From contig CAYRBN010000003.1 of the NCBI GenBank assembly GCA_964422625.1, positions 1 to 34,997 on the forward strand: a stretch of 34,997 bases of DNA, given 5' to 3'. The notes under the pieces were generated by a model that did no database searches, was not told where the DNA came from, and worked only from the letters and a program-made list of their open reading frames with translations. Shown in pieces: positions 12,640 to 34,997 of the stretch. Both the position numbers and the translations under genes were made by a program. Every line of letters starts with the position of its first letter. Within the stretch, counting starts at the first letter, position 1. The DNA comes from an uncultured bacterium (GTDB lineage Bacteria; Hydrothermota; UBA3073).

Positions 12640-12790
12640 TGTCCGATGAATAATTCGTTTTTTTGCGTAGCTAAAGCTACGCTACTACACGGGATGGATA
12701 TCCAAAGCTAATGTAGTAGCGGATCTTTAGATCCGCCCCAAAAGGGAATATCGGTATTGATTGTGGTTTTGGCAATTTTTCACCGGTAAC
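12640..12790 (+). mobile_element. Family-B MITE-like element, copy B2 (151 bp), flanked by a TAAGTAG direct repeat
   Basis: TAAGTAG (12633-12639) | TGTCCGATGAATAATTCG...TTTTTCACCGGTAAC | TAAGTAG (12791-12797). Terminal inverted repeat CCGGTGAA. Confidence 0.85.
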
Positions 12791-13106
12791 TAAGTAGATG
12801 ATTAGGCGATATACTGGACAAGAATTCCTCCTTTCTACAAAGTATATCGCAAAAGGGAATGATCATCATATCAAGAAAATTACTCCCCAGAATATTACCT
12901 ACAGCCATAGATACTGTAAATTTAAGTGAAGCAAGCGAGACTACTAATTCCGGTAGAGAGGTAACAATAACGAAAAAGGTTGTGCCTACAAAACTTTCAC
13001 TCCAGATTCCCAGTCTCCCTATTTCCCCACCAATCTGAGCAAGCCATATCCCCAAAAATATAATAGCCACGAAGTAGATACAAAACTTAAAGAGGGCTAT
13101 CCTCAA
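12780..13106 (-). pseudogene. CaCA (Na+/Ca2+ exchanger, YrbG-like) fragment 3, alpha-2 repeat
   Basis: VTSLPELVVSLASL...GNILGSNFLD. The terminal residues SYR plus the stop are encoded by the B2 terminus. Confidence 0.7.
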
Positions 13107-13708: not shown

Positions 13709-13737
13709 TTTATAACAGAGAAACTAAAAAAAGTCAA
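13709..13737 (-). promoter_or_regulatory. Sigma-70 type promoter (F cassette) of the CaCA pseudogene
   Basis: On the minus strand: TTGACT (13737-13732), 17-nt spacer, TATAAA (13714-13709). The upstream GCGACTTTGCGCCTTTGCGTGAGA is shared with 20287-20365. Confidence 0.7.
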
Positions 13738-14979: not shown

Positions 14980-15633
14980 TTAAAAAAAATGTGGTGCAAT
15001 CAATCCCACTACTGTGCCAAGACAGACAAGACTTGCAATAAATACAAAAATGGAACCAACCCATCCTGCGGGATTTATTGGTATTCTCTCTTCAAAACCA
15101 CTGAAGACATAAACCAAACCCGATTTTAAGGTCTCCCAGGGAGTTATAAAATATTCGTTAACATTACGTTCCCCAACATACATTATGAACATTCCTACGA
15201 AGAAGAAACTAAGTAATGTCACAGCAAGTTTTCCATAGATGCTTTTGCACCATATAACCTTCCAAATGGGGCGCCTATATTTAATAAGGAGACCCGCTGC
15301 AGAAACAGATAGAATAATGAATAACCATGTTGGTAGATCTACATGTCTTCTGTAATGTTTATCAGCAGATGGATGGAGTTTAATGCTCATACCTCTTCGT
15401 GCATTCCTTGGCTTTATATACGATCCTGCCAGGTGGCTTTCTCTCAAAATTGCTGATTTCTTAAAAATCGCCCTTGTAATTTCTTCCACTATGGTAGGAT
15501 GTAAATCTTTTCTGACGACCAGCAGTGCTCTTACACCAATAGTAGAAATATTCCTATATCGTTCAAGGTAATCAACACGAGAAATTCTTGCAAATATAAA
15601 ATAGGATAGTTTTTTCGTAGTTCTCTTACCATC
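14980..15633 (-). pseudogene. Fragment holding the C-terminal part of the TAXI binding domain, a transmembrane anchor, and a 2-TM pore module
   Basis: My translation upstream of the listed start gives ISTIGVRALLVVRKDLHPTIVEEITRAIFKK...KLHPSADKHYRR (TAXI C-terminus). Three hydrophobic helices follow, with a P-loop-like PWETLKSGLVYVFSGFEE. Confidence 0.55.
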
Positions 15634-16292
15634 TCATTAGGCATAGAAACAAAATTTATCTTCCTTGCTTCTTCTAAATAGCGAATAGCGGGGGTCGGGT
15701 AACCAGCTGTTATAAAGGCGGCATGAATCGTGCCAGCAAGCAGAGAATCTTTTGCATCGCCAAAAGAAAGGTATAATGTATCTTTGAGAGCAATATCAAA
15801 GGCACCTAAAATAGTGAATGCATTGGATAGGGTTCCGCTATTTTTTGGTCCCACAGAGACTTTTCTGTCTCTCAGACCGTTAATAGAGGTAATTCCTAAC
15901 TCTTTTCTTGTCACAATTTGAACAACTTCTGTGTAAAGGGATGCAATTCCTCTCAATACCGACGAGTCTCTCAATGCAATATCATTCTGGATAAGGGCAA
16001 TATCAGCCTTTCCTTCTTTTATCAACCTCGCATTTGCAATTGAGCCTGCTGTAGTATCAACAATAACTTCTATACGACCGTGAGATTCTTCCTCTATTGC
16101 TTTTTTGATCCCCTGCCCCACACATAAGCTTATGTGCAGGGTGAACGAGCTCTGTGATTTCCCCTGTTCTTTTATACTTTTTTTGACAGTACCCTCAATA
16201 AGCGAATTTAAAGAGATGAACAAGGTAAGCCAGGTAAATGAGAAGCAAGAAAGCTCCTTCCCAGCGAACCAGACGGGAACCGCTACTGGCAA
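15531..16292 (-). pseudogene. TAXI-family (TRAP-type) solute-binding domain, N-terminal two-thirds
   Basis: VDTTAGSIANARLIKEGKADIALIQNDIA is typical of TAXI receptors. The frame is lost near 15595-15610 and resumes in the 14980-15633 frame. The N-terminus overlaps the CaCA 3' end by about 98 nt. Confidence 0.65.
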
Positions 16293-17193
16293 AGATGAGC
16301 ATGACCAGAGTAATGAATAGCATCACTGGCATGGTTATCCTGAGAGTCTGGCTATCTATGTCCAGGGGGTTAATGAGAGAAGATGTCCCCAGTACCCAGA
16401 GGATGTTTACGATATTAGAACCGATTATAGTCCCGGCCGCTATATCTTCCATCTTCTTGGACACCGCCACCAGGGCGGTAAATAGCTCAGGAAGAGAGGT
16501 TCCCACCGCTACCATAGAGAGACCGATAACTACTTCGGGAACTCCTAAGAACTTCGCGATACTTATTCCGCTGGGAATAACCCCATAGGTCGCCGAGGCG
16601 ATTACCCCAACGGCCCCGATTAAGAACTTGATAGCATCTTTCTTCATACTCGGAGGAGGGTCTCTGCTGTTAATCGCCTTTCTCCTTATCATCAGTTCCT
16701 TTCTAACGATATAGATGGAAGACGCGATAAGCAGAATGCTAAGGAGAAGTCCATTTCCAAAACCCAGATTTCCCCCATCAAGAATCCCCCCTGGTCCTCT
16801 TTGGAAATCGAGCATTAAGAGAAAAAGAAGTATGGCTATTCCGATGAGGAATTTCAATTCCAGTTTTATCAACCTGGGTTGGAAATGAATGGACCTGACC
16901 ATAGCCGCCAGACCCAATATCAAACCGATATTAGCGATGCAGGAGCCCAGGGCATTCCCCACAGCCATTCCCCCGATGCTCTCTTTTAAGGGCAATCGTG
17001 ACATATATGCGGAAATAGTGGATACGGCAAATTCAGGCGCTGAAGTAGCTAAACTGACTATGGTCAGTCCAATAATCATCCGGGGAATTTTCAAAGACTG
17101 AGCCAATCCGGAGGCGCCGCTGGTGAACAGGTCAGCGCTCTTGACGATGACACCAATGGCGATGGCAAAGATGATAAAGTCTCTGATAGGCAT
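16195..17193 (-). CDS. CaCA family sodium/calcium (K+-dependent type) antiporter, intact
   Basis: 332 aa and polytopic, with both alpha repeats: GLTIVSLATSAPEFAVS...GNALGS and GLSMVAVGTSLPELFTAL...GSNIVN. Confidence 0.85.
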   Translation of the reverse strand: MPIRDFIIFAIAIGVIVKSADLFTSGASGLAQSLKIPRMIIGLTIVSLATSAPEFAVSTISAYMSRLPLKESIGGMAVGNALGSCIANIGLILGLAAMVRSIHFQPRLIKLELKFLIGIAILLFLLMLDFQRGPGGILDGGNLGFGNGLLLSILLIASSIYIVRKELMIRRKAINSRDPPPSMKKDAIKFLIGAVGVIASATYGVIPSGISIAKFLGVPEVVIGLSMVAVGTSLPELFTALVAVSKKMEDIAAGTIIGSNIVNILWVLGTSSLINPLDIDSQTLRITMPVMLFITLVMLIFASSGSRLVRWEGAFLLLIYLAYLVHLFKFAY

Positions 17194-22622: not shown

Positions 22623-24050
22623 TCACCTCCCTATCTTCACATTTCTAAATCTGACAGGTGATGTGCCATGACCTACATAGGCTGTCTGCATCGGTTCACC
22701 TTTGCCACAATTGGGTATACCCCAGACATTCCACTCCTTACAGATTGCATCGCAGTTCCTCCATACCTGATATGAGATCCCAGAGTAAGAGGGCCTTTTT
22801 ATCATAGCACCTAATTTTCCGTTTTTGATCTCCCAGCCTATCTGAGCACCTATATGGAAGTTTAACCGCTTATCATCTATGGATGGGGATGTAGGCGCTT
22901 CAATATAGATTCCGCTCTCTGTATCAGCAATCAGATCGGAGAGACTCCAATCTCCAGGTTTAAGATTTATATTTGTCATTCGTATAAGTGGGATACTTGC
23001 CCATGAATCTGCCCTCATTGTCCCGTTACTCTTTTCACCTATTCTGTGGGCTGTCTCTCTTGAGGTTATGTATCCCTTGAATATACCATCTTCCACTAAG
23101 ATTGAGCATTGTGCAGGTATACCTTCGTCATCGTATCCAAAGGAGCCAAGTCCATCCGGAATTGTGGCATCGGACGTAAGTGTTACTATTGGAGAGGCAA
23201 ACTGAAACTTGCCACGCTTATCCAGTGTTAGATGAGAAGTGCCTGCCAAACTCTCCTCTGTCCCCAATACCCTATCAAGTTCAGTTGGATGACCAACAGT
23301 TTCATGGATATGTAATGCCATAACCGAACCATCACATATTATAGTAGTTACCTCAGATGGACACTCTTTTGCAGAAAGTAGGGCATAAGCCTCTTCTGCA
23401 ACTCGTTCTCCATTCTCTTCAAGTTTTAACCCTTTTACAAATTCATATCCTGAGTTCCTGTAATCTCCCATACCGCCAGGAAAGGAACGATCACCTGTCT
23501 TGCCATCTTTTACTGCAGTAGCATGGATGTAAGCTCCTGACTGGGTTATCTCTTGCTCAATAGATGTACCTTCAGAGTTTTTGAACAGCTGGTTCTTTCT
23601 GACAAAAAGAAGGCTTGACTGGGAGATTTTTATTCCCCTTACCTTTCGCATAATCTTATCACAGGATAGGAGCAGATCGATCTTATCTTCATAGGAGACG
23701 GAGAAGGGATCAATTGCTATATCAGTCTTATATTGGGCAACAAGTTTCGGTGCGGATGCCAGTTCTATCTCTTTCTGTTTAAGAGCGCTTGATGACCGGG
23801 CGATCCGACAGGCCAGGGCTGCTGTTTTTTCTATATCCTCACGCGTAAGCCTACAGGTTCCTGCAAACCCCCATGACCCGTCTGTTATGACTCTCACCCC
23901 AATTCCTCTGCTCTCATCGCGTTTAAGAACCTGAACCCGTCCATTTTTCACCGTGATATCCTCTTCTATCCGCTCAAGGAATCTGGCATCAGCATAGCTT
24001 GCTCCTCTAAGTTTTGCGGTATCTATTGCAAGATCAAGTAGTTCTCTCAT
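22623..24050 (-). CDS. tldD: TldD metalloprotease
   Basis: 475 aa from the ATG at 24050 (MRELLDLAIDTAKLRGASYADARF), with AAGGGGG upstream. Contains HETVGH (HExxxH). The 15 extra N-terminal codons in the ORF track lie in the C cassette. Confidence 0.88.
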   Translation of the reverse strand: MRELLDLAIDTAKLRGASYADARFLERIEEDITVKNGRVQVLKRDESRGIGVRVITDGSWGFAGTCRLTREDIEKTAALACRIARSSSALKQKEIELASAPKLVAQYKTDIAIDPFSVSYEDKIDLLLSCDKIMRKVRGIKISQSSLLFVRKNQLFKNSEGTSIEQEITQSGAYIHATAVKDGKTGDRSFPGGMGDYRNSGYEFVKGLKLEENGERVAEEAYALLSAKECPSEVTTIICDGSVMALHIHETVGHPTELDRVLGTEESLAGTSHLTLDKRGKFQFASPIVTLTSDATIPDGLGSFGYDDEGIPAQCSILVEDGIFKGYITSRETAHRIGEKSNGTMRADSWASIPLIRMTNINLKPGDWSLSDLIADTESGIYIEAPTSPSIDDKRLNFHIGAQIGWEIKNGKLGAMIKRPSYSGISYQVWRNCDAICKEWNVWGIPNCGKGEPMQTAYVGHGTSPVRFRNVKIGR

Positions 24051-24261
24051 AATACCCCCTTGTCGCTTCGCTCCATTGAAAAATGAAAAGTGCAAATTGC
24101 AAAATGCAAATTTATTATGTTAACAGATTGGAGGACTGCGGACAGGGATAAACCCTGTCCCTACAATGTCCGCAGGATTGTTTTTGCACGGCCTCAGTAG
24201 ATTGCTACTGCCTCGCAACCAGGAGGTTGCTCCTACCATCTACGCTCTACGCTCAACGCTT
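24051..24261 (-). promoter_or_regulatory. C cassette copy C3, interrupted by A4; includes (TACGCTC) heptamers at 24241-24261
   Basis: It has the same 5' module and heptamers (24077-24111) as C1 and C2. The Y-structure is retained with a different third hairpin, GCAACCaggaGGTTGC. Confidence 0.65.
24135..24194 (+). mobile_element. Family-A element copy A4, an internally and terminally deleted 60-bp derivative
   Basis: ACTGCGGACAGGGATAAACCCTGTCCCTACAATGTCCGCAGGATTGTTTTTGCACGGCCT, followed by CAGTAG (24195-24200). It occupies the same site within C as A2. Confidence 0.7.
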
Positions 24262-24340
24262 TCAATATCGGATATGGGTCAACATAATGGAGATCAAAAT
24301 TGCATATCTTCTCATCAAGTCCAGGTGATAGTGCCATCAG

Positions 24341-25594
24341 CTAATCCCATCCCTTCCGTCGGTGGTTCAACAGGGCGAGTGTCCTGTTCATCTCGTTGTA
24401 CACGATCATCAGACCCTCGTCCACACCCATCCCGGGTTTGGCCAGGATCTGGTCCGGCTGCACAGCAAGAGCGAGCTGCGTACACACCTGCGCTGATCGA
24501 TCTGTCTCGTTGCTTGTCCCCCCTTGGTAGGCACCCACGCCCTTCGCTTTGCAGTAGAGTATCGCGTCTATCGTGTTGGTGATGCTCCCCAGGTCCGGTG
24601 TCTTGATCTGGATCACATCGGCTGCCTGCGCATCGGCGAACTCACGGATATCTTCGAGCGTGTTGCACCACTCGTCAGCGACGATCTTCACCGTGCCACC
24701 CAGCCTGTGTATTCGCCTTCTCAGAAGGGAGAGCCGTTCTATCTGCGCCGATTTGCCTCCAGCGTCGAGCGGTCCTTCAATCAGCAGTTGGTGAGGTGCA
24801 GCCATTTGCTCTAGTTCTAACAGGTAGTCGGCCATCCGCGGGATATCGTCGGAAAAGGCGAGTGCGATCGTGCCGTAGACATCAAGGTGGAAGGACGGAC
24901 GATACCGATCGCCACCGAGCAAGGCACACCGCTCCTTCAACCAGCCGATATACTCGCACAGCAGCTCTCCACGCTGTCCGAGCTTATCTCGCACATTGTT
25001 GATCAACCCGTGGGGAAGGATCGCCGCGTGCTTCAATATTGCCTTGTCCGCGCCTTTATACCGATCATCTCCGCTTTGTGAGAAGATCGGCACCGGTTTC
25101 ACATCGTACGGAAGCCCGTACTCTTCCAGGATTACCTCGGTCATCGTCATCGCTCTTGCTTTGGCTACAGCATCTAGGATCGCTTGCGTCAGCCCGTACT
25201 CGATCGCGGTGTGGACCCGTTTTCCATCGCTTAATCGCACCGATTCACAGTCTGCGGCCAGATCTCTGAACGAATTGAGAGTGCGTCCTTCAAAGAGAGG
25301 GATCACCTCCCGCTCGATGATCGGAATATAATCACGAGCCAGGAACAGAGGGTCACGCCCTCCGGTTCCAGAATACTGGACCGCAGCACAGTCGCCGTAT
25401 GCAACCTGCCCGTCGCACAAGATGAGGATAATAGATATCGACTCCCCCTGTTGACGTATGGAGGTGAACCCGGCGGTCAGAGGAGCGCCGCGATAGGTGA
25501 ACCCATCTGCCTTTGCATCGGCTTTGATCGCCCGCTGGTCGTCGAAATAGAACCCGGTCAATCCGGAAGATAACAGAATCTTAGAAATCTTCAT
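24341..25594 (-). CDS. mal: Methylaspartate ammonia-lyase (3-methylaspartase)
   Basis: 418 aa from the ATG at 25594. MKISKILLSSGLTGFYFDDQRAIK... closely follows the clostridial MAL N-terminus. The start overlaps the glmE end by 14 nt. The CDS is GC-rich. Confidence 0.9.
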   Translation of the reverse strand: MKISKILLSSGLTGFYFDDQRAIKADAKADGFTYRGAPLTAGFTSIRQQGESISIILILCDGQVAYGDCAAVQYSGTGGRDPLFLARDYIPIIEREVIPLFEGRTLNSFRDLAADCESVRLSDGKRVHTAIEYGLTQAILDAVAKARAMTMTEVILEEYGLPYDVKPVPIFSQSGDDRYKGADKAILKHAAILPHGLINNVRDKLGQRGELLCEYIGWLKERCALLGGDRYRPSFHLDVYGTIALAFSDDIPRMADYLLELEQMAAPHQLLIEGPLDAGGKSAQIERLSLLRRRIHRLGGTVKIVADEWCNTLEDIREFADAQAADVIQIKTPDLGSITNTIDAILYCKAKGVGAYQGGTSNETDRSAQVCTQLALAVQPDQILAKPGMGVDEGLMIVYNEMNRTLALLNHRRKGWD

Positions 25595-27071
25595 CGTGCT
25601 TGGGGTCGGTCTTAGGACAGCCGACGAGATGCCCTTTCCCGATCGCGTATACATCATCAATGACCATCTGGAAGTTAGGTTCGCGCCCTTCGCTCTTCCC
25701 CCGTTCGGCGAGCTTCTCCTGATGGAACTCCTTCACTTCCCGGTTGAACGGCAGGTCGCCTGTGGAGAGGAATCTAACCGCCCCTTCTTTGTCGCGCGCC
25801 GGCAGCATTGCCCCATGGGTATGCCGACTCGGAGCAAACGGCACATCAATCACCCCGGCTTCGAACCCCCTGACCGATCCCAAGGCCCAGTCTCCATCGC
25901 CTAGCTCGAGTATCTTATCGATGATCTGCGCAACCTCGGTCTTGATCATCCTCTTCTCAATGTCCAGCTTCTTGGTCTGTTCGATCGACTGTTCTTTGAG
26001 CATCTCCACGATCTGCCTGGTCGCCCGCAACCCTTGCACGTTCGCCTCGCGGGTCGGAACACCGACCGCTTCATGGGGGGTCTTGACGATGATCTTGTTT
26101 GCCTTAGCCATGGCCGCCACGACCGCGCCCCAGGATATCACAGCGAATGCCCTCGCTTCATCCTGAGGAAAACCACCCATCCATTGGTGGAAGACCGTGG
26201 TTACGGTAACATCAGAGAAACCCTCCTGAGCAAGATAATTATCGGCCAGCTCGCGCAACGTTTGAATCGCTGCCACATCCTGCAAAAAATGGCCGTTCTG
26301 CCCACAACCGAAGGTGATGTTTTTCACTCCTTGCTTCGCTGCAAGTACCCCTTCTATGATTCCCACCACATGCGAGATAGAAGGGGGGATCAAAGTGCCG
26401 GTCAAAGTCCCGTACAGTTCACGGTTGATATGTACCCCGTGCTCGTGGTAGTAGCCGACCAGTCGATCAACGTACTGCCAGGAAGAGATCGTCGATTCGA
26501 GGGAGACATCCTTAGCATAAGGGATGTTGTACCCGATTCCTCCTCCTTCGAAGTCGGTGAACCCACCGGCAAGGGTGATCTCGGCGAGGAGCCTGGCGTC
26601 GGGAGTACCGTGGCGGACCTGCAATGGCCGCTTGAGCGCATCCACCAGTCGCCGGCAAGAGGCGACACCGTAGTTGACAGCAGGGAATCCGTTGAGCATC
26701 GACCGCCCCATCTGCTTACTCTCCTTGATCCCATTGTCCGCGTCCTCGTACCGATTCTGACGGGTATAACTGTCTATTGTCGTCGGGAGGATATCGGCCT
26801 CCCCCTCATCCTGCAGGAAGCGAAGCAGTTTGATCTGCTCATCGATGAGAGTTACACCTGCACGTGGTTGGACGAGAGTGCGACCTTCTTTAGCTGCCCG
26901 GTCCAGGACTGTTACGACGTTCTTCTTCCCGGGGAGATCTTTATGGTACGCAAATGCGTCATCTATATCTACATCTTTGCCGGTCGGCCAGAAGGTGAGG
27001 ACCTTCTTCCGCTCCTCTAAGAATACCTCTTCGGGCAACCGCTGATCACTGAACCCTTTTTCATTCATCAT
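25581..27071 (-). CDS. glmE: Glutamate mutase (methylaspartate mutase) epsilon / E subunit
   Basis: 496 aa with WPTGKDVDIDDA...LVQPRAGVTLIDEQIKLLRFLQDEGEADILPTTIDSYTRQNRYEDA. Confidence 0.92.
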   Translation of the reverse strand: MMNEKGFSDQRLPEEVFLEERKKVLTFWPTGKDVDIDDAFAYHKDLPGKKNVVTVLDRAAKEGRTLVQPRAGVTLIDEQIKLLRFLQDEGEADILPTTIDSYTRQNRYEDADNGIKESKQMGRSMLNGFPAVNYGVASCRRLVDALKRPLQVRHGTPDARLLAEITLAGGFTDFEGGGIGYNIPYAKDVSLESTISSWQYVDRLVGYYHEHGVHINRELYGTLTGTLIPPSISHVVGIIEGVLAAKQGVKNITFGCGQNGHFLQDVAAIQTLRELADNYLAQEGFSDVTVTTVFHQWMGGFPQDEARAFAVISWGAVVAAMAKANKIIVKTPHEAVGVPTREANVQGLRATRQIVEMLKEQSIEQTKKLDIEKRMIKTEVAQIIDKILELGDGDWALGSVRGFEAGVIDVPFAPSRHTHGAMLPARDKEGAVRFLSTGDLPFNREVKEFHQEKLAERGKSEGREPNFQMVIDDVYAIGKGHLVGCPKTDPKHDEDF

Positions 27072-28492
27072 CTCTCCTCCTGGTGAACTTCTACCAGATA
27101 TCGGGTTAAGAGTTTGAACGCTGTCCTGGGCATCTGCTTTGCCAGCAGCCCGGCTGAGGCTATGATGTAATCCTTATCTATGTAAAATATTCCTTCTGTC
27201 GGTGTGAGGACATCTACTTGATCCGCTCGCCGTACAGCCCCTGCAAGCACACAACGCGGTGTTTGATGGTGGACAAGAACCCCTCCGGTGCCGATGATTC
27301 TTCGCACCATAGTCAGGTCTTTGCCACGCTGGATGGTTATCTTCCCGTGGGGAGTGAAGAGGTAGTTTAACTTACCGGCATGGCGTGTTACAGCCATCTC
27401 CACCGCTGTGCGAGCAATGATACTCTCTAACACTATCTCTCGCTCGGAAGTGCATATCCGGTCGCTCTCCTGGCTGATCATCTTTACGAAACGCTCCAAC
27501 TCAGTGATAGTAAATCGCTTCTCCTTGTCCAATTGAACCCCGATACGCAGCAAATCAGATTCCTCTATCGCCGCCATTAGGCTGGCCGCACTGTAGCGCA
27601 TTCCCATGTCGCCTTCCACTGTCCGCTTGTCCCAGGGTTCGATCAGCCCCTTGCGAACCACCCCCGGAAGGGTAGGGTCCCCACCAGCCATGGAGTGGAC
27701 ATCGGTCGTTGCTCCGCCTATATCTACGACGATCAGCTCACCCCAACCTTTGTTTTGACCATCCCCTCGAGCGAGCAACCGGGCAGCATCCATCACAGCG
27801 GACGGCGTGGGCATGACGACTCCATCGATCAAATCCTGAATTCTATCAAGCCCTTTGGCGACGACGATCTTCTCCAGGAAGAGTTTGCGGATCGCCTCGC
27901 GCGCCGGCTCGATGTTCAAAGTTTCCAGCTGAGGCATTACATTGTCGGCAACCCGGACATCCTTGCCAGCCCGTCGCAGGATATCAGCCACCTCGTCTTG
28001 CGCAACCTTGTTCCCGGCAACAATGATCGGTGCAGTTAAATCAGATCGGGCAAGCAGACGGGCGTTGTGCAGAATTGTATTACTGTTGCCGCCGTCGATC
28101 CCACCGGCGAGGAGAATGATATCGGCCTCTACTCGGTCGATGGCGGTGATTTCGCTCTTGCTCAGATTGAAGGAGAAAGTCTGTAGGAGTTTAGCCCCCG
28201 CTCCAAGCACTGCCAACTTTGCGGCTTCAGCGGTCAGACTTGGGATCAACCCGATCGCCACCATGCGCAACCCACCTGCGGCACTGCTGCAGGCCAGTTT
28301 GAGATCAGTCCGGGAGAAAATCGGGCCGATCTGCTCCTCCACCTGCGCAACCGCACGGTGGAGTCCATCACTGACATCACGGCCGATCGTTGTCGGCGCC
28401 TTACCGACCGCGAGGATAGTCGCCTGCTCGCAATCGACGGCGACCACTTTGGTAAAAGTGCTCCCAATATCACATAGAATCGCAACTGCCAT
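27068..28492 (-). CDS. glmL: Glutamate mutase accessory / reactivase protein GlmL (MutL)
   Basis: 474 aa in the ASKHA-like fold (CDIGSTFTKV, VVDIGGATTDVHS). It sits between glmS and glmE as in clostridial operons and overlaps the glmE start (ATGATGA). Confidence 0.85.
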   Translation of the reverse strand: MAVAILCDIGSTFTKVVAVDCEQATILAVGKAPTTIGRDVSDGLHRAVAQVEEQIGPIFSRTDLKLACSSAAGGLRMVAIGLIPSLTAEAAKLAVLGAGAKLLQTFSFNLSKSEITAIDRVEADIILLAGGIDGGNSNTILHNARLLARSDLTAPIIVAGNKVAQDEVADILRRAGKDVRVADNVMPQLETLNIEPAREAIRKLFLEKIVVAKGLDRIQDLIDGVVMPTPSAVMDAARLLARGDGQNKGWGELIVVDIGGATTDVHSMAGGDPTLPGVVRKGLIEPWDKRTVEGDMGMRYSAASLMAAIEESDLLRIGVQLDKEKRFTITELERFVKMISQESDRICTSEREIVLESIIARTAVEMAVTRHAGKLNYLFTPHGKITIQRGKDLTMVRRIIGTGGVLVHHQTPRCVLAGAVRRADQVDVLTPTEGIFYIDKDYIIASAGLLAKQMPRTAFKLLTRYLVEVHQEER

Positions 28493-28498
28493 TGGACC

Positions 28499-28933
28499 TC
28501 AGACCTCGGACTTCGGACTTCGGACTTCCAAATCTGCCTTCAGATCGCGAATCGGACCATCGGGCAACGTCCCCTGGGGGTAGACCCGGTCGAAACCCAT
28601 CCTCAGAAAACGCTCTTTCACCTCGTCCCAGTCCTGCTTACCTATCACCAGATTGCCGCCGATGTAGATTATGATATCATTCAGCCCAGCTTCTATGCAT
28701 CGTTCCCGGAACCCCTGACAGTCAAGCTCGCCATGGCCGTAGAGGGAGGAAACAAGAATCGCATCAGCATCCGCCTCTATCGCCGCCTCAATAAAATCTT
28801 GTTGTGAAGAAAGCACTCCGATGTTAACTACATGAAAGCCTGCTTCGGTGAATGCATAGTCGAGGATCTTGTTCCCCACTGCATGGACATCGGCTCCGAT
28901 AACACCTAATATCACGGTCTTTCGATCCTTCAT
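28499..28933 (-). CDS. glmS: Glutamate mutase sigma / S subunit (cobalamin-binding)
   Basis: 144 aa with the B12-binding DxHxxG motif ([12 protein letters not shown]). The last 8 codons (EVRSPKSEV) are encoded by the (AAGTCCG)x3 array. Confidence 0.9.
28507..28527 (-). repeat. (AAGTCCG)x3 heptamer array forming the 3' end of glmS
   Basis: The plus strand reads CGGACTTCGGACTTCGGACTT. The same unit occurs at 11958-11987. Confidence 0.85.
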
Positions 28934-28949
28934 TCTATGTCAACGGTCC

Positions 28950-29086
28950 GGTGCACGTACAAAAACAACCTTGCAGACAACTAGTAGAGTATGTAACCAC
29001 AAGGGTTGCCCCTACATTGTAGGGACAGGGTTTATCCCTGTCCGCAGACCAGTTTTACCATCATAAACTGACTTTTTGCACAGCCT
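28950..29086 (-). mobile_element. Family-A element copy A5, in the glmS / sucD-like spacer
   Basis: CGTACAAAAACAACC...CCACAAGGGTTGCCCCTACATTGTAGGGACAGGGTTTATCCCTGTCCGCAGACC...GACTTTTTGCACAGCCT. The left boundary is uncertain by a few nt. Confidence 0.75.
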
Positions 29087-29113
29087 CAAGTGACTGCATC
29101 TCTTTTCAATATA

Positions 29114-30010
29114 CTAGTTCAAGGCCTGCTGCAACAGGGGAATGATGTCATTAAACCGCTCGGCAACGTGCGCTCCTGCCTGACGCAACCGCTCGATCTT
29201 GCTAGACGGACGTCCTGCATCCCCCTCTATCATCGCTGCGGCATGTCCAAAGACCGTTCCCGACGGTAGCTGCTCGGTGAACCTCCCGGCTACATAGGCA
29301 ATGAGCGGTTTACTGAACTCGCCGGACTCCAGGGAGTCGCTTACCTGCTCTTCAAAACTGGTCCCCGGCTCTGCGAAGAGGACTACCGCTTCGGTAAGGT
29401 CGTCCTGTTCGAATAGCGAGAGCAGGGTATGTGGTTTCGTGCCGACCAGGGCGTCCCCGCCGATGCTAACGCTGGTGCTTACCCCGTAACCCGCTCTCTT
29501 GACCATCCATGAGCATTCAGCTGTCATCCCGCCGCTGCGCGAGATGACACCAACGGTCCCTGGGACGAAACAGCGCTCAACATTATCCCCGCCAATCGGA
29601 CCGAGCTTGCACCTCTCAGCCGGGCTGATGATGCCTACAGAGTTAGGTCCAATGATCTGTACACCGTGGACATGAGCCGACTGCAACAGCTTAAGTGCGT
29701 CCATCTGGGGGATATTCTCTGTAATGATGATGATCAGTTCAATCCCGTTGTCGACCGCTTCCAGGACCGCGTCCAGAACCGCTGCCGGGGGAACATAGAC
29801 AATACTTGTGTTTAACGGATGACTCTTGCACGCCGCCTTGATCGTGTCGTAGACCGGAACACCTTCCACATTTTGCCCGCCACGTCCTGGGGTGACTCCG
29901 GCGACTACCGGTGTCCCGTAGTCGAGCATCTGCTTTGCGACCATCGTCGCCTCGCGTCCTGTGATCCCCTGGATCAGAACCCGCGATTCTTTACCAACCA
30001 GGATAGCCAT
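29114..30010 (-). CDS. Succinyl-CoA synthetase alpha-like subunit of an ADP-forming acyl-CoA ligase (MtkB/SucD family)
   Basis: 298 aa from the ATG at 30010, preceded by GGGAGGGAG. The stop and start overlap as TAATG. It has the CoA-binding motif LIQGITGREAT...VAGVTPGRGG and the phosphohistidine motif FGHAAAMI. Confidence 0.8.
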   Translation of the reverse strand: MAILVGKESRVLIQGITGREATMVAKQMLDYGTPVVAGVTPGRGGQNVEGVPVYDTIKAACKSHPLNTSIVYVPPAAVLDAVLEAVDNGIELIIIITENIPQMDALKLLQSAHVHGVQIIGPNSVGIISPAERCKLGPIGGDNVERCFVPGTVGVISRSGGMTAECSWMVKRAGYGVSTSVSIGGDALVGTKPHTLLSLFEQDDLTEAVVLFAEPGTSFEEQVSDSLESGEFSKPLIAYVAGRFTEQLPSGTVFGHAAAMIEGDAGRPSSKIERLRQAGAHVAERFNDIIPLLQQALN

Positions 30011-31248
30011 TATTCCACTCCCTCCCATTGATCATAATCCGGATAGGCCCTGCGCATCTTCTCAACCATCAGTATAGCGGCTTCATCGAGGGTGATATCA
30101 TCGCCGTGGTAATCGATCCCAGCAGAGATAAATATCTGTCGCCCTTCCTCATCATGGGTACCGGCTTCGCGTACAACGACCGGAAATACTTTACTATCTA
30201 TCCCCATCTCGTCGAGTGCAGCAACGACCCCCTTGGCCATCAGATCAATTTGGGTATTGTTAGTAATGTTATGTGCCAAAAACAGTCCTTTAACTCCGGG
30301 TTTGGAAAGAATCCCCTTACACAAACTGTGGACCTTGCTCTCCGGAGGATTCCCGCCTATCTCGCTGTAGTTCGCCGGCCGGCCGCCGGCCCGTCTCAAG
30401 GCGTCCATCAGCAACAAACTGGCTCCGCCTCCACCGCACATGAACCCGATGTCACCACCGTCGAACTCGGTATAACGGGCAGTACCGCGGTAGGACTCCT
30501 TCGCACTCGCCTCAATCAGATTCTTCTCCAGTGCGGTGAGTGGACGCCAGGTGCGATCACTACCCGGCTGGACCATATGGGACAGTGCAGACTGGCGGTA
30601 GAGAGCGTTTTCATCTATGTTCAATACACAGTCAGCAGCAACGATCGTCTCCTCCTCGGTCAGCACGAGCGGGTTGATCTCGACCAGCATAGCGTCGTAT
30701 CTAACGAACATCTGATAGAGGCGGATAAGGATCGTGCTTGCCTGGCGCAGAGGCTTGCCGGTCAGACCGAGGTCGGACCATATCTCGATCGCCTTGTACC
30801 CAGGCAGGCCAACGAGAGGATCTATATGGGTCTTGCTCACCTTGTCAGGATGCTCACGACTCAGCTGTTCGATATTCACCCCGCCCAATGAGCTTGTCAC
30901 AATAGCCACCCGTTGGGCAGATTTATCTATGGTGATCGACAGGTAGAACTCCCGTGCGATCGCCAGCTTCTGCTCTACCAACACCTGCTCAACCGGATAG
31001 CCGGATACGGTCATTCCCAGTATCTTCTCCGTTCGTTCTATCGCCTCTTTCTCGTTCTCGGCAAAGGCGATTGCCCCTGCCTTCCCCCGTTTCCCTATCG
31101 GGATCAGCGCTTTGATCACCACAGGAAAAACAATCTCCTGAGCAAACTGCGCAGCCAGTGCGGCGGTCGATGCAGCCCTGCCTGTAGGAATAGGGATATT
31201 ACACTCTGCCAGCAGGCCCTTTCCATGGTCTTCGAGAATACGTGCCAT
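30010..31248 (-). CDS. Succinyl-CoA synthetase beta-like (ATP-grasp) subunit (MtkA/SucC family)
   Basis: 412 aa with N-terminal MARILEDHGKGLLAECNIPIP (compare the SucC ATP-grasp start) and C-terminal ANYSEIGGNP. AGGAGG lies upstream. Confidence 0.75.
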   Translation of the reverse strand: MARILEDHGKGLLAECNIPIPTGRAASTAALAAQFAQEIVFPVVIKALIPIGKRGKAGAIAFAENEKEAIERTEKILGMTVSGYPVEQVLVEQKLAIAREFYLSITIDKSAQRVAIVTSSLGGVNIEQLSREHPDKVSKTHIDPLVGLPGYKAIEIWSDLGLTGKPLRQASTILIRLYQMFVRYDAMLVEINPLVLTEEETIVAADCVLNIDENALYRQSALSHMVQPGSDRTWRPLTALEKNLIEASAKESYRGTARYTEFDGGDIGFMCGGGGASLLLMDALRRAGGRPANYSEIGGNPPESKVHSLCKGILSKPGVKGLFLAHNITNNTQIDLMAKGVVAALDEMGIDSKVFPVVVREAGTHDEEGRQIFISAGIDYHGDDITLDEAAILMVEKMRRAYPDYDQWEGVE

Positions 31249-31287
31249 ATCTGATACTTCCTCCTAACTTGCGATAAGATTAATTAG

Positions 31288-31437
31288 TGTCCGGTGAATA
31301 ATTCGTTTTTTGCGTAGCTAAAGCTACGCTACTACACGGGATGGATATCCAAAGCTAATGTAGTAGCGGATCTTTAGATCCGCCCCAAAAAGGAATATCC
31401 ATATTGATTGTGGTTTTAGCATTTTTCCAGCGGTAAC
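31288..31437 (+). mobile_element. Family-B element copy B5 (150 bp), in the citE-like / sucC-like spacer
   Basis: TAATTAG (31281-31287) | TGTCCGGTGAATAATTCG...TTTTTCCAGCGGTAAC | TAATTAC (31438-31444). The right repeat contains the citE-like stop codon. Confidence 0.85.
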
Positions 31438-31440
31438 TAA

Positions 31441-32310
31441 TTACTCCGCCCTTTGTATATCATTGGCAAGGGCGAGAAGCCTCTCTGCATTGCGGGCGAC
31501 AGGATAGTCAATGAATTTACCGTTGTCAAGCATTATTGCCGCATGCCCGGCGGATTCAGCTTCCCTGAACGCAGCCACGACACGCTCGGCATAGGCGATC
31601 TCCTCTTGCGATGGAGAAAAGACCTCATTTACCGGCTCTATCTGTGCAGGATGGATGACCAGTTTCCCTTGAAAGCCAAGCTTGCGCCCTACGCCCGCAT
31701 CAGCGAGCAGACCGGAAGGGTTCTTGATCTCAGGATAGACAGTATCAATCGGCGGTTCCAACTCAGCGGCGGCAGAGGCGTTGACAAGGTGTGAACGAGC
31801 ATAGAGGATCTCGACCCCGCCTTTCTCTAACTGAACATTGATATCGGTGGTATAGTCTATTGCCCCAAAGCAAAGTCGGCGTACACGCGCGACGCTCGTA
31901 GCGATATCGTAGGCGTTGTGAACACCGGCGGCATTCTCCACCAGCGGGATGAGGTCTATTGAACCGAGAGGAAGTGACCGCTCCTTCTCCAGATGTGAGA
32001 GGTACCAATCGACCTTGATCAGATCGACTGCTTTCTCCGTCTTAGCAAGGACGATCCCATCCAGGTGAGATGAGACGACAGCAGCTAGATCACCAATAGT
32101 AAGCCCAGTGGAAAGGGCATTAACTCGCACATAGCAGGGACGATCGCGAGAGGTCATCAACACCTCTGCAATTGACTTGCGCGTCGCTGCCTTCTCAGCG
32201 ACCGGTACCGAATCCTCCAAATCGAGGATGACGACATCGGCGTTGAGCTGCAACGCTTTCTCCACACGCCGGGACACATTTCCCGGGGCAAACAGCAAGG
32301 AACGAAACAT
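31441..32310 (-). CDS. CitE / HpcH-HpaI family acyl-CoA lyase (malyl-, beta-methylmalyl- or citramalyl-CoA lyase-like)
   Basis: 289 aa from the ATG at 32310 (MFRSLLFAPGN...). It has VILDLEDSV and the overall citrate-lyase beta pattern. The substrate cannot be read from the sequence. Confidence 0.8.
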   Translation of the reverse strand: MFRSLLFAPGNVSRRVEKALQLNADVVILDLEDSVPVAEKAATRKSIAEVLMTSRDRPCYVRVNALSTGLTIGDLAAVVSSHLDGIVLAKTEKAVDLIKVDWYLSHLEKERSLPLGSIDLIPLVENAAGVHNAYDIATSVARVRRLCFGAIDYTTDINVQLEKGGVEILYARSHLVNASAAAELEPPIDTVYPEIKNPSGLLADAGVGRKLGFQGKLVIHPAQIEPVNEVFSPSQEEIAYAERVVAAFREAESAGHAAIMLDNGKFIDYPVARNAERLLALANDIQRAE

Positions 32311-32466
32311 GATCAATCTCAAAATAGCAATGTTTATCGCCTACTACAACTCCACCAATCGGCGGTATAAAATATTGCGCAGCAAAGCAGAAGAGTGGTA
32401 CATGTTTAGCGTTCATCTGTCAAGCAAGCTCAACCACAGGAGACGATCGTTAGTTTGATTATCTCC

Positions 32467-32495
32467 ATTATACCATAGAAATTCTAATTTGTCAA
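32467..32495 (-). promoter_or_regulatory. Sigma-70 type consensus promoter upstream of the GC-rich operon
   Basis: On the minus strand: TTGACA (32495-32490), 17-nt spacer, TATAAT (32472-32467). An AT-rich leader of about 150 nt runs to 32310. Confidence 0.75.
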
Positions 32496-32528
32496 GATTT
32501 TTTTTTGACACACAACCATCTCACTCCA

Positions 32529-33407
32529 TCAAAACCTTACACTCCCAGAAATCCTTGTGTTCACTCCAAGTTCGTGTTGGCTCTGTCCGTAGTCTATTCT
32601 GAAACTGCCGATTTTGAGGCCCACACCAAAAGAGGGATCTCCTCTATCCAATCCCACCCTTACTGCAAATCTCTCTCTATATACATATTCAAGTCCTATA
32701 TAAGGATCACTCTTTAGGACATCAAGTTTCGTAATTTTACCCTCCAAATCTGTATCAAGTCCTGCTGCTATCACAAGGGTTCCATCAAACCTTTCAATAG
32801 GAATCTTATATGATACCCCTGTTCTCAAGAGAGGTGGAATTATTTCCCTTGTATTAGTGCTCCAGAATAGGACAGTAGTCGTGAGATTCTGGATAGAAAG
32901 CCCAAATGAAAAAGGAGGAAGATCATAGAGTAGACCACCATCTATACCAATCCCATAAGCAGTTCCCTCTCTGAAATTTCTGTATATCGCCATGAGAGTC
33001 ACACCCAGCGAGAGATTGGGATATATCGCATTTCTACCATAAGTAAAGTAGAATATCCAATCGTCTACATCCAAGGTGTCCAAGGGAATGGTATCGTCAG
33101 TGAATATCATATCCGGAATTCTTATCTGCCTGAGTGCAATTCCTATACCCTCGGTCTCCCCTGAGATAGCAAATGAGATGGCGTTATAGTTCACTATTCC
33201 ACCAAAACCCGGAGAGTGGAAAAGGAATATCTCTTTTCCTTTTCCCCTTACAATACAGGCAGGATTCCAGAAAGGAGCCTCTGCAGCCTCTGCCAGGGTA
33301 ACATAAGCAGAGCCTAATCCTTGTGCCCTTCCCCCGACAGGAAACAGTAGAAATTCGCCGGCATACTTTGCCCCAAATGATATTAGAAATGAGAGAAGGA
33401 GAGTCAT
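32529..33407 (-). CDS. Outer-membrane beta-barrel protein, PorV/PorQ-like
   Basis: Start chosen at MTLLLSFLISFG. GEFLLFPVGGRAQGLGSAYVTLAEAAEAPFWNPA resembles the N-terminal signature of PorV/PorQ-type barrels. The rest has an alternating beta-strand pattern and ends in a terminal F. Confidence 0.45.
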   Translation of the reverse strand: MTLLLSFLISFGAKYAGEFLLFPVGGRAQGLGSAYVTLAEAAEAPFWNPACIVRGKGKEIFLFHSPGFGGIVNYNAISFAISGETEGIGIALRQIRIPDMIFTDDTIPLDTLDVDDWIFYFTYGRNAIYPNLSLGVTLMAIYRNFREGTAYGIGIDGGLLYDLPPFSFGLSIQNLTTTVLFWSTNTREIIPPLLRTGVSYKIPIERFDGTLVIAAGLDTDLEGKITKLDVLKSDPYIGLEYVYRERFAVRVGLDRGDPSFGVGLKIGSFRIDYGQSQHELGVNTRISGSVRF

Positions 33408-33481
33408 ATCAGAATTAGGAGTAATGGAACAAGTTCGACCTTTGCAATTAGAGAGACTGATTGCCACAGATAACTAATAGT

Positions 33482-34822
33482 CTATGGCAATTTTATGAAC
33501 CCATCTTTCATAAGTGCATCTGTCTGATCCCTTGCCTTTTTTATCTTCTCTTTGGCAATCCTCATCAACTCTTCTTTTGAAAAGTTGAGCCTTGCAACGC
33601 CTTGTTCTATTGCCTTCAAAGCAACCGCAACCGCTTCTCTGGGGAATACATCCCAATCATCCATTGTCGGAATTATATACTCCTCATGGAAGCCTCTGTC
33701 CTCTGCACACTTTGCCAGCTCTACTGCGGCTGATATACACATCTCATCAGTAATAGTGGTTGCCATAACATCCAGAGTGCCTCTGAATATTGACGGAAAC
33801 CCAAGTGAATTATTCACTTGATTGGGAAAATCTGACCTGCCAGTTGCCACAATCCTTGCACCTGCCTCTTTTGCCTCCCATGGCCATATCTCTGGAATCG
33901 GGTTGGCAATGGGGAAAACAATAGCGTCTTTTGCCATACCTTTTATCCATTCCTGCTTTATGGTTCCCGGACCCGGCTTTGATGCGGCTATACAGACATC
34001 TGCACCTTTCATAGCATCAGGAATATCACCTACAACATTATCAGCGTTTGTTATCTGGCACAGTTCCCACTTCTCCTTATAGTTATCTACGAGGTCTGTT
34101 CTGCCTCTATGTAATGTCCCCTTTGAGTCGCACAATATTATATTAGCGGCTGGCACACCTGCCTTGATGAACACCCAAATACTCCTTATATTAGAGGCAC
34201 CCGCACCAATGAATACAACTTTAATTTTGCTAATATCCTTTCCAACTATCTTCACCGCATTTATAAAGCCTGCCAATATCACTGTTGCCGTGCCCTGCTG
34301 GTCATCGTGCCAGACGGGTATTCTTGCCCTTTTTCGGAGCTCATTCAGGATATAGAAGCATTTTGGTTGGGCTATATCCTCAAGGTTTATTCCACCAAAG
34401 GTTGGCTGGAGCAGAAGAGTAGTCTCTACTATCTTGTCAGGGTCTTTTGTATCAAGGCCTATAGGGAATGCATCAACCCCTCCAAGATACTTGAACAGTA
34501 GTGCCTTTCCTTCCATAACAGGCATCCCTGCCTCTGGACCTATATCCCCAAGTCCGAGTACCCTGGTGCCGTCTGTTATCACTGCAACGAAGTTTGCCTT
34601 GTTGGTATGTTCAAACACCTTTTCTGGATTTGCTTTTATATCTTTACAAGGCTGTGCAACTCCAGGCGTATACCAGATTGCGAAATCATCAAAACTCCGT
34701 ATACAACACTTTGGAACTACCTCCACCTTTCCTTGATAGAAAGGATGAAGCCTCATAGCATCCTCACCAGGCTTTTTTGCCCTGGCAAGGAGTTCCTCCA
34801 CTGTCAATTTTTTCCCTGTCAT
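33482..34822 (-). CDS. NAD(P)-dependent malic enzyme (short form, no PTA domain)
   Basis: 446 aa from the ATG at 34822, with AGGAG upstream. Motifs YTPGVA, VITDGTRVLGLGDIG and FIGAGASNI. The upstream 39 codons of the ORF-track call lie inside repeat D4. Confidence 0.9.
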   Translation of the reverse strand: MTGKKLTVEELLARAKKPGEDAMRLHPFYQGKVEVVPKCCIRSFDDFAIWYTPGVAQPCKDIKANPEKVFEHTNKANFVAVITDGTRVLGLGDIGPEAGMPVMEGKALLFKYLGGVDAFPIGLDTKDPDKIVETTLLLQPTFGGINLEDIAQPKCFYILNELRKRARIPVWHDDQQGTATVILAGFINAVKIVGKDISKIKVVFIGAGASNIRSIWVFIKAGVPAANIILCDSKGTLHRGRTDLVDNYKEKWELCQITNADNVVGDIPDAMKGADVCIAASKPGPGTIKQEWIKGMAKDAIVFPIANPIPEIWPWEAKEAGARIVATGRSDFPNQVNNSLGFPSIFRGTLDVMATTITDEMCISAAVELAKCAEDRGFHEEYIIPTMDDWDVFPREAVAVALKAIEQGVARLNFSKEELMRIAKEKIKKARDQTDALMKDGFIKLP

Positions 34823-34860
34823 ATCCACTCCTGGCGGAACTGAAATTCCACTTTTACTTA

Positions 34861-34997
34861 ATCCCAGATTATGCATTAACCACAGATTACACAGATTTTC
34901 ACAGATTGCATAAGAATCTTCAAGAATATGACTTTTCACCTTTTAGGTGAAGAACATATCTCGATCTGATTGTTGCAAATTCTTTACTGACTTGTCT
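34861..34997 (-). mobile_element. Family-D element copy D4 (cut by the window end)
   Basis: It is the reverse complement of 7511-7647, with 4 mismatches in 137 nt. Confidence 0.8.

Follow-up and report, generated by a model that had tools for sequence, protein, structure and literature searches.

A seven-gene operon joining glutamate mutase and methylaspartase to a citryl-CoA-synthetase-like ligase and a CitE-like lyase: a candidate ending for the methylaspartate pathway in an uncultured WOR-3 bacterium

Here we describe an operon on a 34,997-nucleotide stretch of DNA from an uncultured bacterium (contig CAYRBN010000003.1 of assembly GCA_964422625.1; the whole stretch is called the window below), in which the genes of a glutamate mutase and of a methylaspartate ammonia-lyase stand behind genes for a two-subunit, ATP-dependent coenzyme A (CoA) ligase and a CitE-like lyase. 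Seven intact, co-oriented genes occupy positions 32310..24341 of the minus strand in the order citE-like, ligase beta, ligase alpha, glmS, glmL, glmE and mal (Table 1), just as the initial annotation of this DNA had proposed, and the tight junctions that it listed can each be read from the sequence: TAATG between the two ligase genes, ATGATGA (a 4-nt overlap) between glmL and glmE, and a 14-nt overlap between glmE and mal, to which we add a 6-nt gap between glmS and glmL. Two longer spacers lie within the operon, one of 192 nt between the citE-like and ligase genes and one of 180 nt between the ligase genes and glmS, and no consensus terminator is found in either. A predicted sigma-70-type promoter-like site, matching the consensus at 12 of 12 positions and the sole such site in 23900-32800, is located ~160 nt upstream of the citE-like ATG. 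Judging from this layout, co-transcription of the seven genes is likely, and a single promoter for all of them is plausible.

The enzymes encoded by the distal four genes are readily recognized. Families were assigned throughout by NCBIfam and Pfam profile searches with curated cut-offs, and all four proteins score well above theirs: GlmS against equivalog NF002612 (223 bits, cut-off 110), GlmL against NF040745 (582 bits, cut-off 475), GlmE against TIGR01503 (729 bits, cut-off 390) and Mal against TIGR01502 (558 bits, cut-off 286). The GlmS translation additionally holds the DxHxxG motif (DVHAVG). By equivalog-level family membership, GlmS, GlmL, GlmE and Mal are thus predicted to carry out the steps from glutamate to mesaconate. 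We infer that the operon as a whole encodes this known pathway with a different ending, and it is the three promoter-proximal genes, for the lyase and the two ligase subunits (hereafter the trio), that call for explanation.

Table 1. Coordinates of the operon genes and of the associated sequence features in the window.
Feature	Position	Strand	Description
citE-like lyase gene	32310..31441	-	289 aa; ATG at 32310, longest open reading frame from TTG at 32322
Ligase beta (sucC-like)	31248..30010	-	412 aa; ATP-grasp plus ACL/CCS-like substrate domain
Ligase alpha (sucD-like)	30010..29114	-	298 aa; CoA-binding domain, phosphohistidine loop GHAAAM
glmS	28933..28499	-	144 aa; B12-binding subunit S of glutamate (methylaspartate) mutase
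glmL	28492..27068	-	474 aa; mutase accessory (reactivating) protein
glmE	27071..25581	-	496 aa; glutamate mutase catalytic subunit E
mal	25594..24341	-	417 aa; methylaspartate ammonia-lyase
Sigma-70-type promoter-like site	32467..32495	-	TTGACA, 17-nt spacer, upstream TG, TATAAT; predicted
Inverted repeat, citE-ligase spacer	31312..31383		25-nt arms, 84% complementary, no T-run; not scored as terminator
REP-like repeat copy, ligase-glmS spacer	29014..29050	-	37 nt; 97% inverted pair with 24133-24169
REP-like repeat copy, just downstream of mal at left edge of island	24133..24169	+	pairs with 29014..29050
REP-like 32-mer copies	46-77, 12182-12213, 20840-20871, 24138-24169, 29014-29045		repeat count in window
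Compositional island	24200..32400		~55% G+C against ~40-45% in both flanks; coincides with the seven-gene operon
ACL, ATP-citrate lyase; CCS, citryl-CoA synthetase; REP, repetitive extragenic palindromic; G+C, guanine plus cytosine.

The ligase was first described as SucCD-type, a label that holds for its membership in the succinyl-CoA synthetase (SCS) family but not for its substrate domain, which by motifs and by C-terminal match resembles CCS and ACL. In Pfam the beta subunit matches ATP-grasp_2 and, in place of Ligase_CoA, Citrate_bind (the domain that binds citrate in ATP-citrate lyase), and the alpha subunit matches CoA_binding, Succ_CoA_lig and Ligase_CoA. Against curated models both subunits fall short: beta scores 287 bits against SucC (cut-off 370) and 240 bits against the equivalog for the malate-CoA ligase (Mtk) beta subunit (cut-off 604), and alpha scores 277 and 271 bits against two SucD models (cut-offs 353 and 336, respectively). 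Identity to the E. coli proteins is 34% for beta (SucC) and 39% for alpha (SucD), and in a neighbour-joining tree, which carries no support values and includes neither MtkA nor full-length CcsA, a very long branch parts the ligase family from E. coli SucC. The initial annotation had held that tight clustering with bona fide succinyl-CoA synthetases would make the linkage to glm and mal fortuitous; no such clustering is seen, and by these measures the ligase is not a housekeeping SCS.

Searches against solved structures give a consistent picture of the beta subunit. Over its whole length its best match is Thermus SCS (217 bits), and its N-terminal ATP-grasp half is the more SCS-like. The C-terminal domain searched alone retrieves Hydrogenobacter CcsA (6hxq_B) as top match at 77 bits, followed by Thermus SCS (66 bits), Chlorobium AclB (56 bits) and E. 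coli SCS (51 bits), and an insertion that precedes this domain is likewise ACL/CCS-like. Its motifs ANYSEIGGNPP and HNITNNTQID correspond to ANFTDIGGNPP and GGTANNTRID in CCS and to ANYAEYSGDP and IANFTDV in ACL; the SCS-type substrate-domain motifs, ANFLDVGGGA and NIFGGIVRCD, are absent from it. The domain is thus better termed citryl-CoA-synthetase/ACL-like than SucCD-like. In the alpha subunit, the GHAAAM phosphohistidine motif pointed out earlier is indeed present and aligns with the GHAGA loop of E. coli SucD that contains His246; conserved in the ligase alignment, too, are Glu208 (alpha) and Glu197 (beta) of E. coli SCS, both of which serve this phosphohistidine loop in the E. coli enzyme.

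Individual pocket residues allow a more specific prediction. Residues N330-N331-T332 of the beta subunit align with N346-F347-T348 of human ACLY (through a transitive alignment), with NNT of CCS and with NFT of AclB, at a position where SCS has G-G-I; R360-E361 align with ACLY R378-R379, and CCS, AclB and ACLY all carry Arg where the ligase has E361. Across 24 family members of 54-92% identity, H326, N327, I328, T329, N331, T332, R360 and E361 are invariant, and N330 is not among the invariant residues. In ACLY the 343-348 loop reportedly binds the hydroxyl and carboxylate of the central carbon of citrate, and Arg379 is said to form a salt bridge with its third (pro-R) carboxylate; the alignment positions used in this comparison were verified. 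Since the N-N-T loop is kept and Glu takes the Arg379 position, the simplest prediction is a ligase that acts on a 2-hydroxy-dicarboxylate, citramalate or malate. Mesaconate, citramalate and a malate-type acid had all been put forward as substrates at the outset; the pocket motifs favour an acid of the citramalate type over mesaconate or succinate.

The partner lyase belongs to the CitE/CLYBL/Ccl acyl-CoA lyase superfamily. It matches the HpcH_HpaI barrel in Pfam (144 bits, cut-off 25) together with a C-C_Bond_Lyase lid, and the lid with its catalytic Asp, the metal motifs and the CoA-ester motifs are all recognizable: LDLED, VRVN, VENA, FGxxDY, IHPxQ and a C-terminal ID(Y)P are conserved in an alignment with 1sgj, 5vxc, 5ugr and 8khl. 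Its scores nevertheless stay below the NCBIfam cut-offs for CitE (219 bits, cut-off 443), the RipC/Ccl equivalog (161 bits, cut-off 375) and the haloarchaeal Mcl equivalog (62 bits, cut-off 500). Among solved structures the nearest are Deinococcus CitE (135 bits), human CLYBL (131 bits), Mcl (5ugr, 119 bits) and 'acyl-CoA lyase beta chain' entries (118 bits), so that the lyase is roughly equidistant from its solved relatives at 95-135 bits. Human CLYBL cleaves citramalyl-CoA; 3qll and the 'acyl-CoA lyase beta chain' entries are citramalyl-CoA lyases of the itaconate pathway. On these scores the lyase forms a separate branch of the CitE superfamily. Because it is just 37-41% identical to the CitE subunits in classical glm-mal clusters, it did not arise in situ from the beta subunit of a citramalate lyase. 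Its predicted function is the cleavage of (S)-citramalyl-CoA.

Ligase and lyase also occur together far beyond the window. A scan with the ligase family alignment, taking one genome per species, yielded 80 loci (numbered, like all comparison loci here, with our own L numbers), 56 of them with full flanks. In every one of these 56 the alpha subunit lies beside the ligase relative, and a CitE-like gene is near it in 48; further recurrent neighbours are an SdhA-like flavoprotein (40/56), an MmgE/PrpD-family protein (36/56) and a class I fumarase, two-subunit or fused (28/56), with crotonase-type genes at only ~6 loci. Dicarboxylate transporters of the TRAP and DASS types and GntR or sigma-54 regulators are frequent around the trio, and the two nearest relatives without glm genes in metagenomes (L168 and L169, 68% identity) have the same partner genes, one of them as a complete citE-ligase-PrpD-FeS-flavoprotein-fumAB operon. 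At least 80 species-level genomes carry the trio. Among the metagenome-assembled genomes (MAGs) and isolates labelled Bacillota these include Bacillaceae (e.g., Cytobacillus and Fictibacillus) and Brevibacillus; Desulfosporosinus, Desulfofundulus and Desulfovirgula are further carriers, and other MAGs that carry it are labelled delta-proteobacteria, Acidobacteriota, Chloroflexota, Armatimonadota, Sedimentisphaerales (Planctomycetota) and Bipolaricaulota. Databases name the family succinate-CoA ligase or acetate-CoA ligase, and some members citryl-CoA synthetase.

Many of these loci (L014-L084, for example L057, L062, L022 and L041, along with L168 and L169) share a wide operon of lyase, ligase, MmgE/PrpD protein, Sdh-like ABC, class I fumarase and TRAP/DASS transporter. 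Its hosts are Bacillaceae, Desulfotomaculia and, among MAGs, those labelled delta-proteobacteria, Acidobacteriota and Chloroflexota, and by appearance it encodes an uncharacterised pathway that handles C5-branched (or other) dicarboxylates as free acids. Class I fumarases are promiscuous mesaconases (PMC4682846) and an MmgE/PrpD protein was recently identified as a methylsuccinate isomerase (PMC12290011), precedents by which the operon fits C5-branched acids; a coherent sequence would run from methylsuccinate through mesaconate, citramalate and citramalyl-CoA to acetyl-CoA and pyruvate. Other loci vary the theme. The closest relative without glm genes (L009) has as neighbours a thiamine pyrophosphate enzyme, a dehydratase and Wadjet genes, uninformative on function; Wadjet genes (JetA, SMC-like, JetD) in fact lie directly downstream of the trio in Syntrophomonadaceae MAGs (L009 12375-19137, L011 3934-5283). 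A delta-proteobacterial MAG carries the sigma-54 regulator-citE-ligase locus twice, ~54 kb apart on contig CAWDTD010000003.1 (L033 and L034), and in a Syntrophothermus MAG (L025 14491-18666) the citE and ligase genes are again near an amino-acid mutase, with genes for a GlmL-like reactivase and a fused B12 enzyme of the D-ornithine/lysine aminomutase-like kind ~2.4 kb away.

Most telling for the window is where the trio meets glm and mal. The same seven-gene synteny, which the initial annotation had suggested looking for in public genomes, is found in six loci (L005-L008, L043 and L167), all with the order citE-ligase-glmSLE-mal. In a Sedimentisphaerales MAG (L060) the order is instead glmS-glmL-glmE-mal-ligase-citE, and in a Syntrophaceae MAG (L058) mal is divergent from citE-ligase. 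These three arrangements fall in three separate places in the neighbour-joining ligase tree, by which the trio appears to have joined glm/mal at least three times independently and in two gene orders. Furthermore, the nearest relatives of L060 have a fused class I fumarase in the slot that glm-mal holds in L060. The complementary view came from scanning metagenomes with an alignment of Mal: among 80 further mal loci (57-63% identity), none has the ligase beside mal, 26 contain a two-subunit class I fumarase and 24 a CitE gene, and the two of the latter that were examined are both citD-citE-citF, one (L107) with citC-citX as well. Clostridia and their relatives have been described with citDEF placed beside glm-mal in this way (PMC4682846). 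In the loci compared, mal thus appears next to either the acyl carrier protein (ACP)-dependent lyase complex or the ligase-lyase trio. The proposed replacement of the CoA-transferase or lyase-complex chemistry of known routes by an ATP-dependent ligase together with a CitE-like lyase consequently gains comparative support from the conserved trio, from its three or more linkages to glm/mal and from the absence of the ligase from all 80 further mal loci.

Put together, these observations suggest a horizontally acquired operon in which the trio takes the place of the citramalate lyase complex, a reading that we hold with about even confidence. By family membership, GlmSE, with GlmL as reactivator, converts glutamate to (2S,3S)-3-methylaspartate, which Mal deaminates to mesaconate and ammonia. 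An unlinked class I fumarase-type mesaconase, encoded outside the window, would hydrate mesaconate to (S)-citramalate; the two-subunit phosphohistidine ligase, as its pocket motifs and context suggest, would then form citramalyl-CoA at the expense of ATP (released as ADP and phosphate), and the CitE-like lyase would split the ester into acetyl-CoA and pyruvate. The two-carbon product would be acetyl-CoA instead of acetate, and the ACP-based CitDEF with CitC/X would be replaced. ATP spent on citramalate can be recovered from acetyl-CoA through phosphotransacetylase and acetate kinase or through ADP-forming acetyl-CoA synthetase, and the ligase route would therefore break even energetically with the lyase complex while delivering acetyl-CoA directly. 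Sequence does not settle which way the flux runs, and the catabolic neighbours of the trio in other lineages argue against a biosynthetic one.

Several points weigh against this proposal. Chief among them is the hydration of mesaconate. The initial annotation had noted the lack of a mesaconase or mesaconyl-CoA hydratase gene in the window, a gap that we can confirm and that extends to every glm-linked relative examined: tblastn over the window and seven glm-linked loci found neither a class I fumarase (three queries) nor a crotonase, no hydratase is among the called genes of L167, and no MaoC domain occurs in the annotated open reading frames of at least 100 aa in the window. Were mesaconate hydration obligatory, it would be odd for a linked hydratase gene to be missing from the window and from all eight glm-linked relatives. 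The missing step could be supplied either by a housekeeping class I fumarase or by a mesaconate-activating ligase together with a CoA-ester hydratase encoded elsewhere. Malate would fit the logic of the pocket as well as citramalate does, specificity is not securely readable from sequence, such that citramalate activity is a prediction, and the pocket argument leans on residue roles reported for ACLY. Lastly, the two long intergenic gaps could hold internal promoters.

The reading most directly opposed to citramalate activation is that the ligase activates mesaconate itself, after which an unlinked MaoC or crotonase hydratase would give citramalyl-CoA or beta-methylmalyl-CoA and the lyase would release acetyl-CoA and pyruvate or propionyl-CoA and glyoxylate, in what would be an ATP-dependent version of steps of the haloarchaeal methylaspartate cycle. 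Mesaconate is, after all, what the enzyme encoded by the neighbouring mal gene makes directly, no glm-linked cluster has a free-acid hydratase, activation of the unsaturated analogue itaconate has been reported for succinyl-CoA synthetases (PMC12290011), and the lyase resembles malyl/beta-methylmalyl-CoA lyases too (5ugr). The substrate loop, however, is of the hydroxy-acid type of ACL and CCS and not of the SCS type; the hydratase that recurs near the trio is a class I fumarase, which acts on free acids, rather than a crotonase; the lyase falls far short of the cut-off for the haloarchaeal Mcl equivalog; and an unlinked hydratase is needed just as it is for citramalate activation. We regard mesaconate activation as unlikely, if still worth keeping in view. 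A distinctly smaller chance attaches to a trio that acts on malate (through malyl-CoA to acetyl-CoA and glyoxylate) or on citrate (through citryl-CoA to oxaloacetate and acetyl-CoA), its adjacency to glm/mal reflecting co-transfer or co-regulation. The database label citryl-CoA synthetase on some family members and the Citrate_bind match would agree with this, as would the equal fit of malate to the pocket and the Sdh-like and fumarase neighbours, which suit a succinate-fumarate-malate sequence. Yet it is difficult to see why the trio should have been linked to glm/mal three times independently, in two orders, if the two shared no intermediate, and the ligase and citDEF are mutually exclusive beside mal; the invariant Glu at the ACLY Arg379 position speaks against citrate, and equivalog scores far below cut-off for malate-CoA ligase and malyl-CoA lyase speak against malate.

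Perhaps the same enzymes run in reverse, with the lyase joining acetyl-CoA and pyruvate to citramalyl-CoA, the ligase releasing citramalate and ATP, and dehydration, amination and the mutase leading on to glutamate, as a glutamate route for anaerobes lacking citrate synthase, aconitase and isocitrate dehydrogenase. All of the enzyme types are reversible, and engineered E. coli was shown to form glutamate with the support of GlmES and Mal (bioRxiv 10.1101/2025.11.12.688011); if true, acetyl-CoA and pyruvate, for instance from the Wood-Ljungdahl pathway and pyruvate synthase, would feed an ATP-yielding glutamate synthesis in anaerobes without the oxidative branch of the tricarboxylic acid (TCA) cycle. 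We nonetheless consider this direction improbable to a high degree: uptake transporters and GntR/sigma-54 regulators typical of catabolism surround the trio elsewhere, all characterised glmSE-mal operons are catabolic (PMC4682846), nothing indicates that the host is without a normal glutamate route, and the hydratase would still be missing. Scarcely credible, finally, is the view that the ligase is simply the succinyl-CoA synthetase of the organism and stands beside glm/mal by accident. Gene callers and NCBI often name the family succinate-CoA ligase, and the best whole-length structural match is indeed an SCS, but the subunits score below the curated SucC and SucD cut-offs, diverge strongly from the E. 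coli enzyme on a long branch and share a C-terminal domain and insertion with ACL and CCS. Moreover, the ligase has a CitE-like lyase as its partner in nearly all cases, travels with the rest of the operon in an island of foreign base composition (see below) and is present in two copies on a single contig of one MAG.

The closest analogues of citramalate activation by the trio differ according to what is compared: for architecture they are MtkAB with Mcl and CCS with citryl-CoA lyase, for the pathway the clostridial methylaspartate route, and for the last step itaconate/mesaconate degradation. With the clostridial pathway the operon has in common the GlmS, GlmL, GlmE and Mal half, a CitE-family lyase and the expected products, a two-carbon unit and pyruvate. 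That pathway, however, relies on the mesAB mesaconase and on CitDEF with CitC/X/G, whereas the window is without CitD, CitF, CitC/X and a linked mesaconase (CitD, CitF and a family III CoA-transferase were all sought there by tblastn and not found) and has a two-subunit ATP-dependent ligase in place of the lyase-complex parts. CcsAB with citryl-CoA lyase in Hydrogenobacter, and ATP-citrate lyase, show the same order of ligase and then lyase, in the case of CcsAB with a two-subunit phosphohistidine ligase, and have in common with the window ligase an insertion ahead of the C-terminal domain as well as two motifs, ANY/F-x-x-GGNPP and N-x-T; in contrast, the partner lyase here is of the HpcH_HpaI/CitE type and not of the citrate-synthase type, the ligase has Glu for Arg379, and the context is catabolic C5 metabolism rather than the reductive TCA cycle. 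MtkAB and Mcl of the serine cycle likewise couple an SCS-family ligase for a 2-hydroxy-dicarboxylate to a CitE-superfamily lyase, but the window proteins score far under the corresponding equivalog cut-offs and are linked to glutamate mutase and methylaspartase instead of one-carbon assimilation genes. The predicted last step, citramalyl-CoA to acetyl-CoA and pyruvate by a related lyase, is that of itaconate/mesaconate degradation (Ccl/RipC/CLYBL), where activation depends on a succinyl-CoA-dependent transferase and not on an ATP-dependent ligase; the combination of a mesaconase with citramalate activation matches Burkholderia (PMC4682846). In the haloarchaeal methylaspartate cycle (Mct, Mch, Mcl), too, mesaconate formed by way of glutamate mutase and methylaspartase enters CoA-ester chemistry with a CitE-like lyase as its last enzyme, though the window has no family III CoA-transferase and no MaoC hydratase, and its lyase is not close to haloarchaeal Mcl.

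If citramalate activation is correct, the ligase would represent a new enzyme activity, a citramalate-CoA ligase, within a widespread and apparently uncharacterised family, and the methylaspartate pathway would have in the trio a third possible ending, in addition to the CoA-transferase routes and the ACP-dependent lyase complex. The trio would also complete the series citrate, malate, citramalate for systems composed of an SCS-family ligase and a carbon-carbon lyase. We know of no Enzyme Commission entry for a citramalate-CoA ligase, and we found no description in the open-access literature of a citramalate- or mesaconate-CoA ligase of the window type or of the seven-gene combination; the combination is not mentioned in the paper on Acetothermia from Oman, whose site matches the isolate name NSHQ14 of L043. 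Kronen and Berg have pointed out that, for bacteria with glmSE-mal that lack a citramalate lyase, it is unclear what becomes of citramalate (PMC4682846), and the trio is a candidate answer to that problem, drawn from genomes and with one step missing. More practically, annotation as succinate-CoA or acetate-CoA ligase leads to mis-assignment of the trio to the TCA cycle in pathway reconstructions.

The operon further stands out by its base composition, coinciding with an island richer in G+C than both flanks (Table 1). The flanking genes, encoding IspD/F, LysS, MreD, PurA, RarA, a TldD/PmbA pair, a PorV/PorQ-like protein and a malic enzyme, have housekeeping roles, and the best named relatives of LysS are from candidate division WOR-3 (65-67% identity). 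Island proteins, on the other hand, are 82-92% identical to those on contigs of 58-62% G+C labelled Candidatus Bipolaricaulota and Thermotogaceae, and in MAGs labelled Acetothermia and Thermotogae they have counterparts of 63-82% identity. This suggests a fairly recent cross-phylum transfer of the whole operon into a low-G+C WOR-3 bacterium from a high-G+C lineage whose MAGs are labelled Bipolaricaulota, and the case would then illustrate how a complete amino-acid catabolic operon can pass between phyla into an uncultured WOR-3 bacterium. An assembly chimera as the origin of the compositional step was considered and rejected: the same arrangement, including both flanks, recurs in assemblies made independently (L001 and L002, with L003 and L004 having the same operon genes as far as they reach), and the host REP-like repeat is present inside the island. 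No empty insertion site could be shown, the PorV-like homologues of ~60% identity lying in another neighbourhood with a ribosomal operon and POR genes.

The REP-like repeat is a 32-nt intergenic sequence, GCGGACAGGGATAAACCCTGTCCCTACAATGT, with an internal palindrome, of which the window has five copies where none would be expected; among 84 loci it is confined to contigs of the same organism. The copy in the ligase-glmS spacer is inserted there, and the spacer measures 33-57 nt in relatives without the element. Two of the copies form the 37-nt inverted pair around glmSLE-mal, and ends of a mobile cassette were considered for it and rejected, as the 32-mer recurs five times, the low-G+C backbone included; because it is dispersed across the window, it is better taken for a REP-like element than for cassette ends. 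A cobalamin riboswitch or leader RNA before the operon was likewise not seen in an Rfam search, in which the whole window gave no match at gathering thresholds and 24000-32600 gave a chance-level match only at E<=1.

A few features of the surrounding DNA merit brief mention. The malic enzyme gene (33482-34939) lies two genes upstream of the operon in DNA of host G+C content, with the PorV/PorQ-like gene (32529-33467) in between; malic enzyme (SfcA) is listed in some classical glutamate-fermentation clusters (PMC4682846), and a malic enzyme gene adjoins fumAB in L090. Directly downstream of the island, the TldD-like gene (22623-24095) is an open reading frame of 490 aa, to which a 232-aa call in the otherwise identical contig L001 (11243-12067) corresponds as a partial match of 100% identity, a strain or assembly difference at the island edge. 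Farther away, 12000-16300 is poor in open reading frames and may have undergone gene decay: a 108-aa Ca/Na antiporter-like fragment (12780..13106) has an intact copy at 16195..17193, and the gene for a TAXI-family TRAP binding protein is split into two open reading frames (15531..16292 and 14980..15489). Lastly, a KamA-family radical S-adenosylmethionine aminomutase is encoded at 18977-20077, scoring ~250 bits alike against the models for lysine, glutamate and arginine 2,3-aminomutases, below all of their cut-offs.

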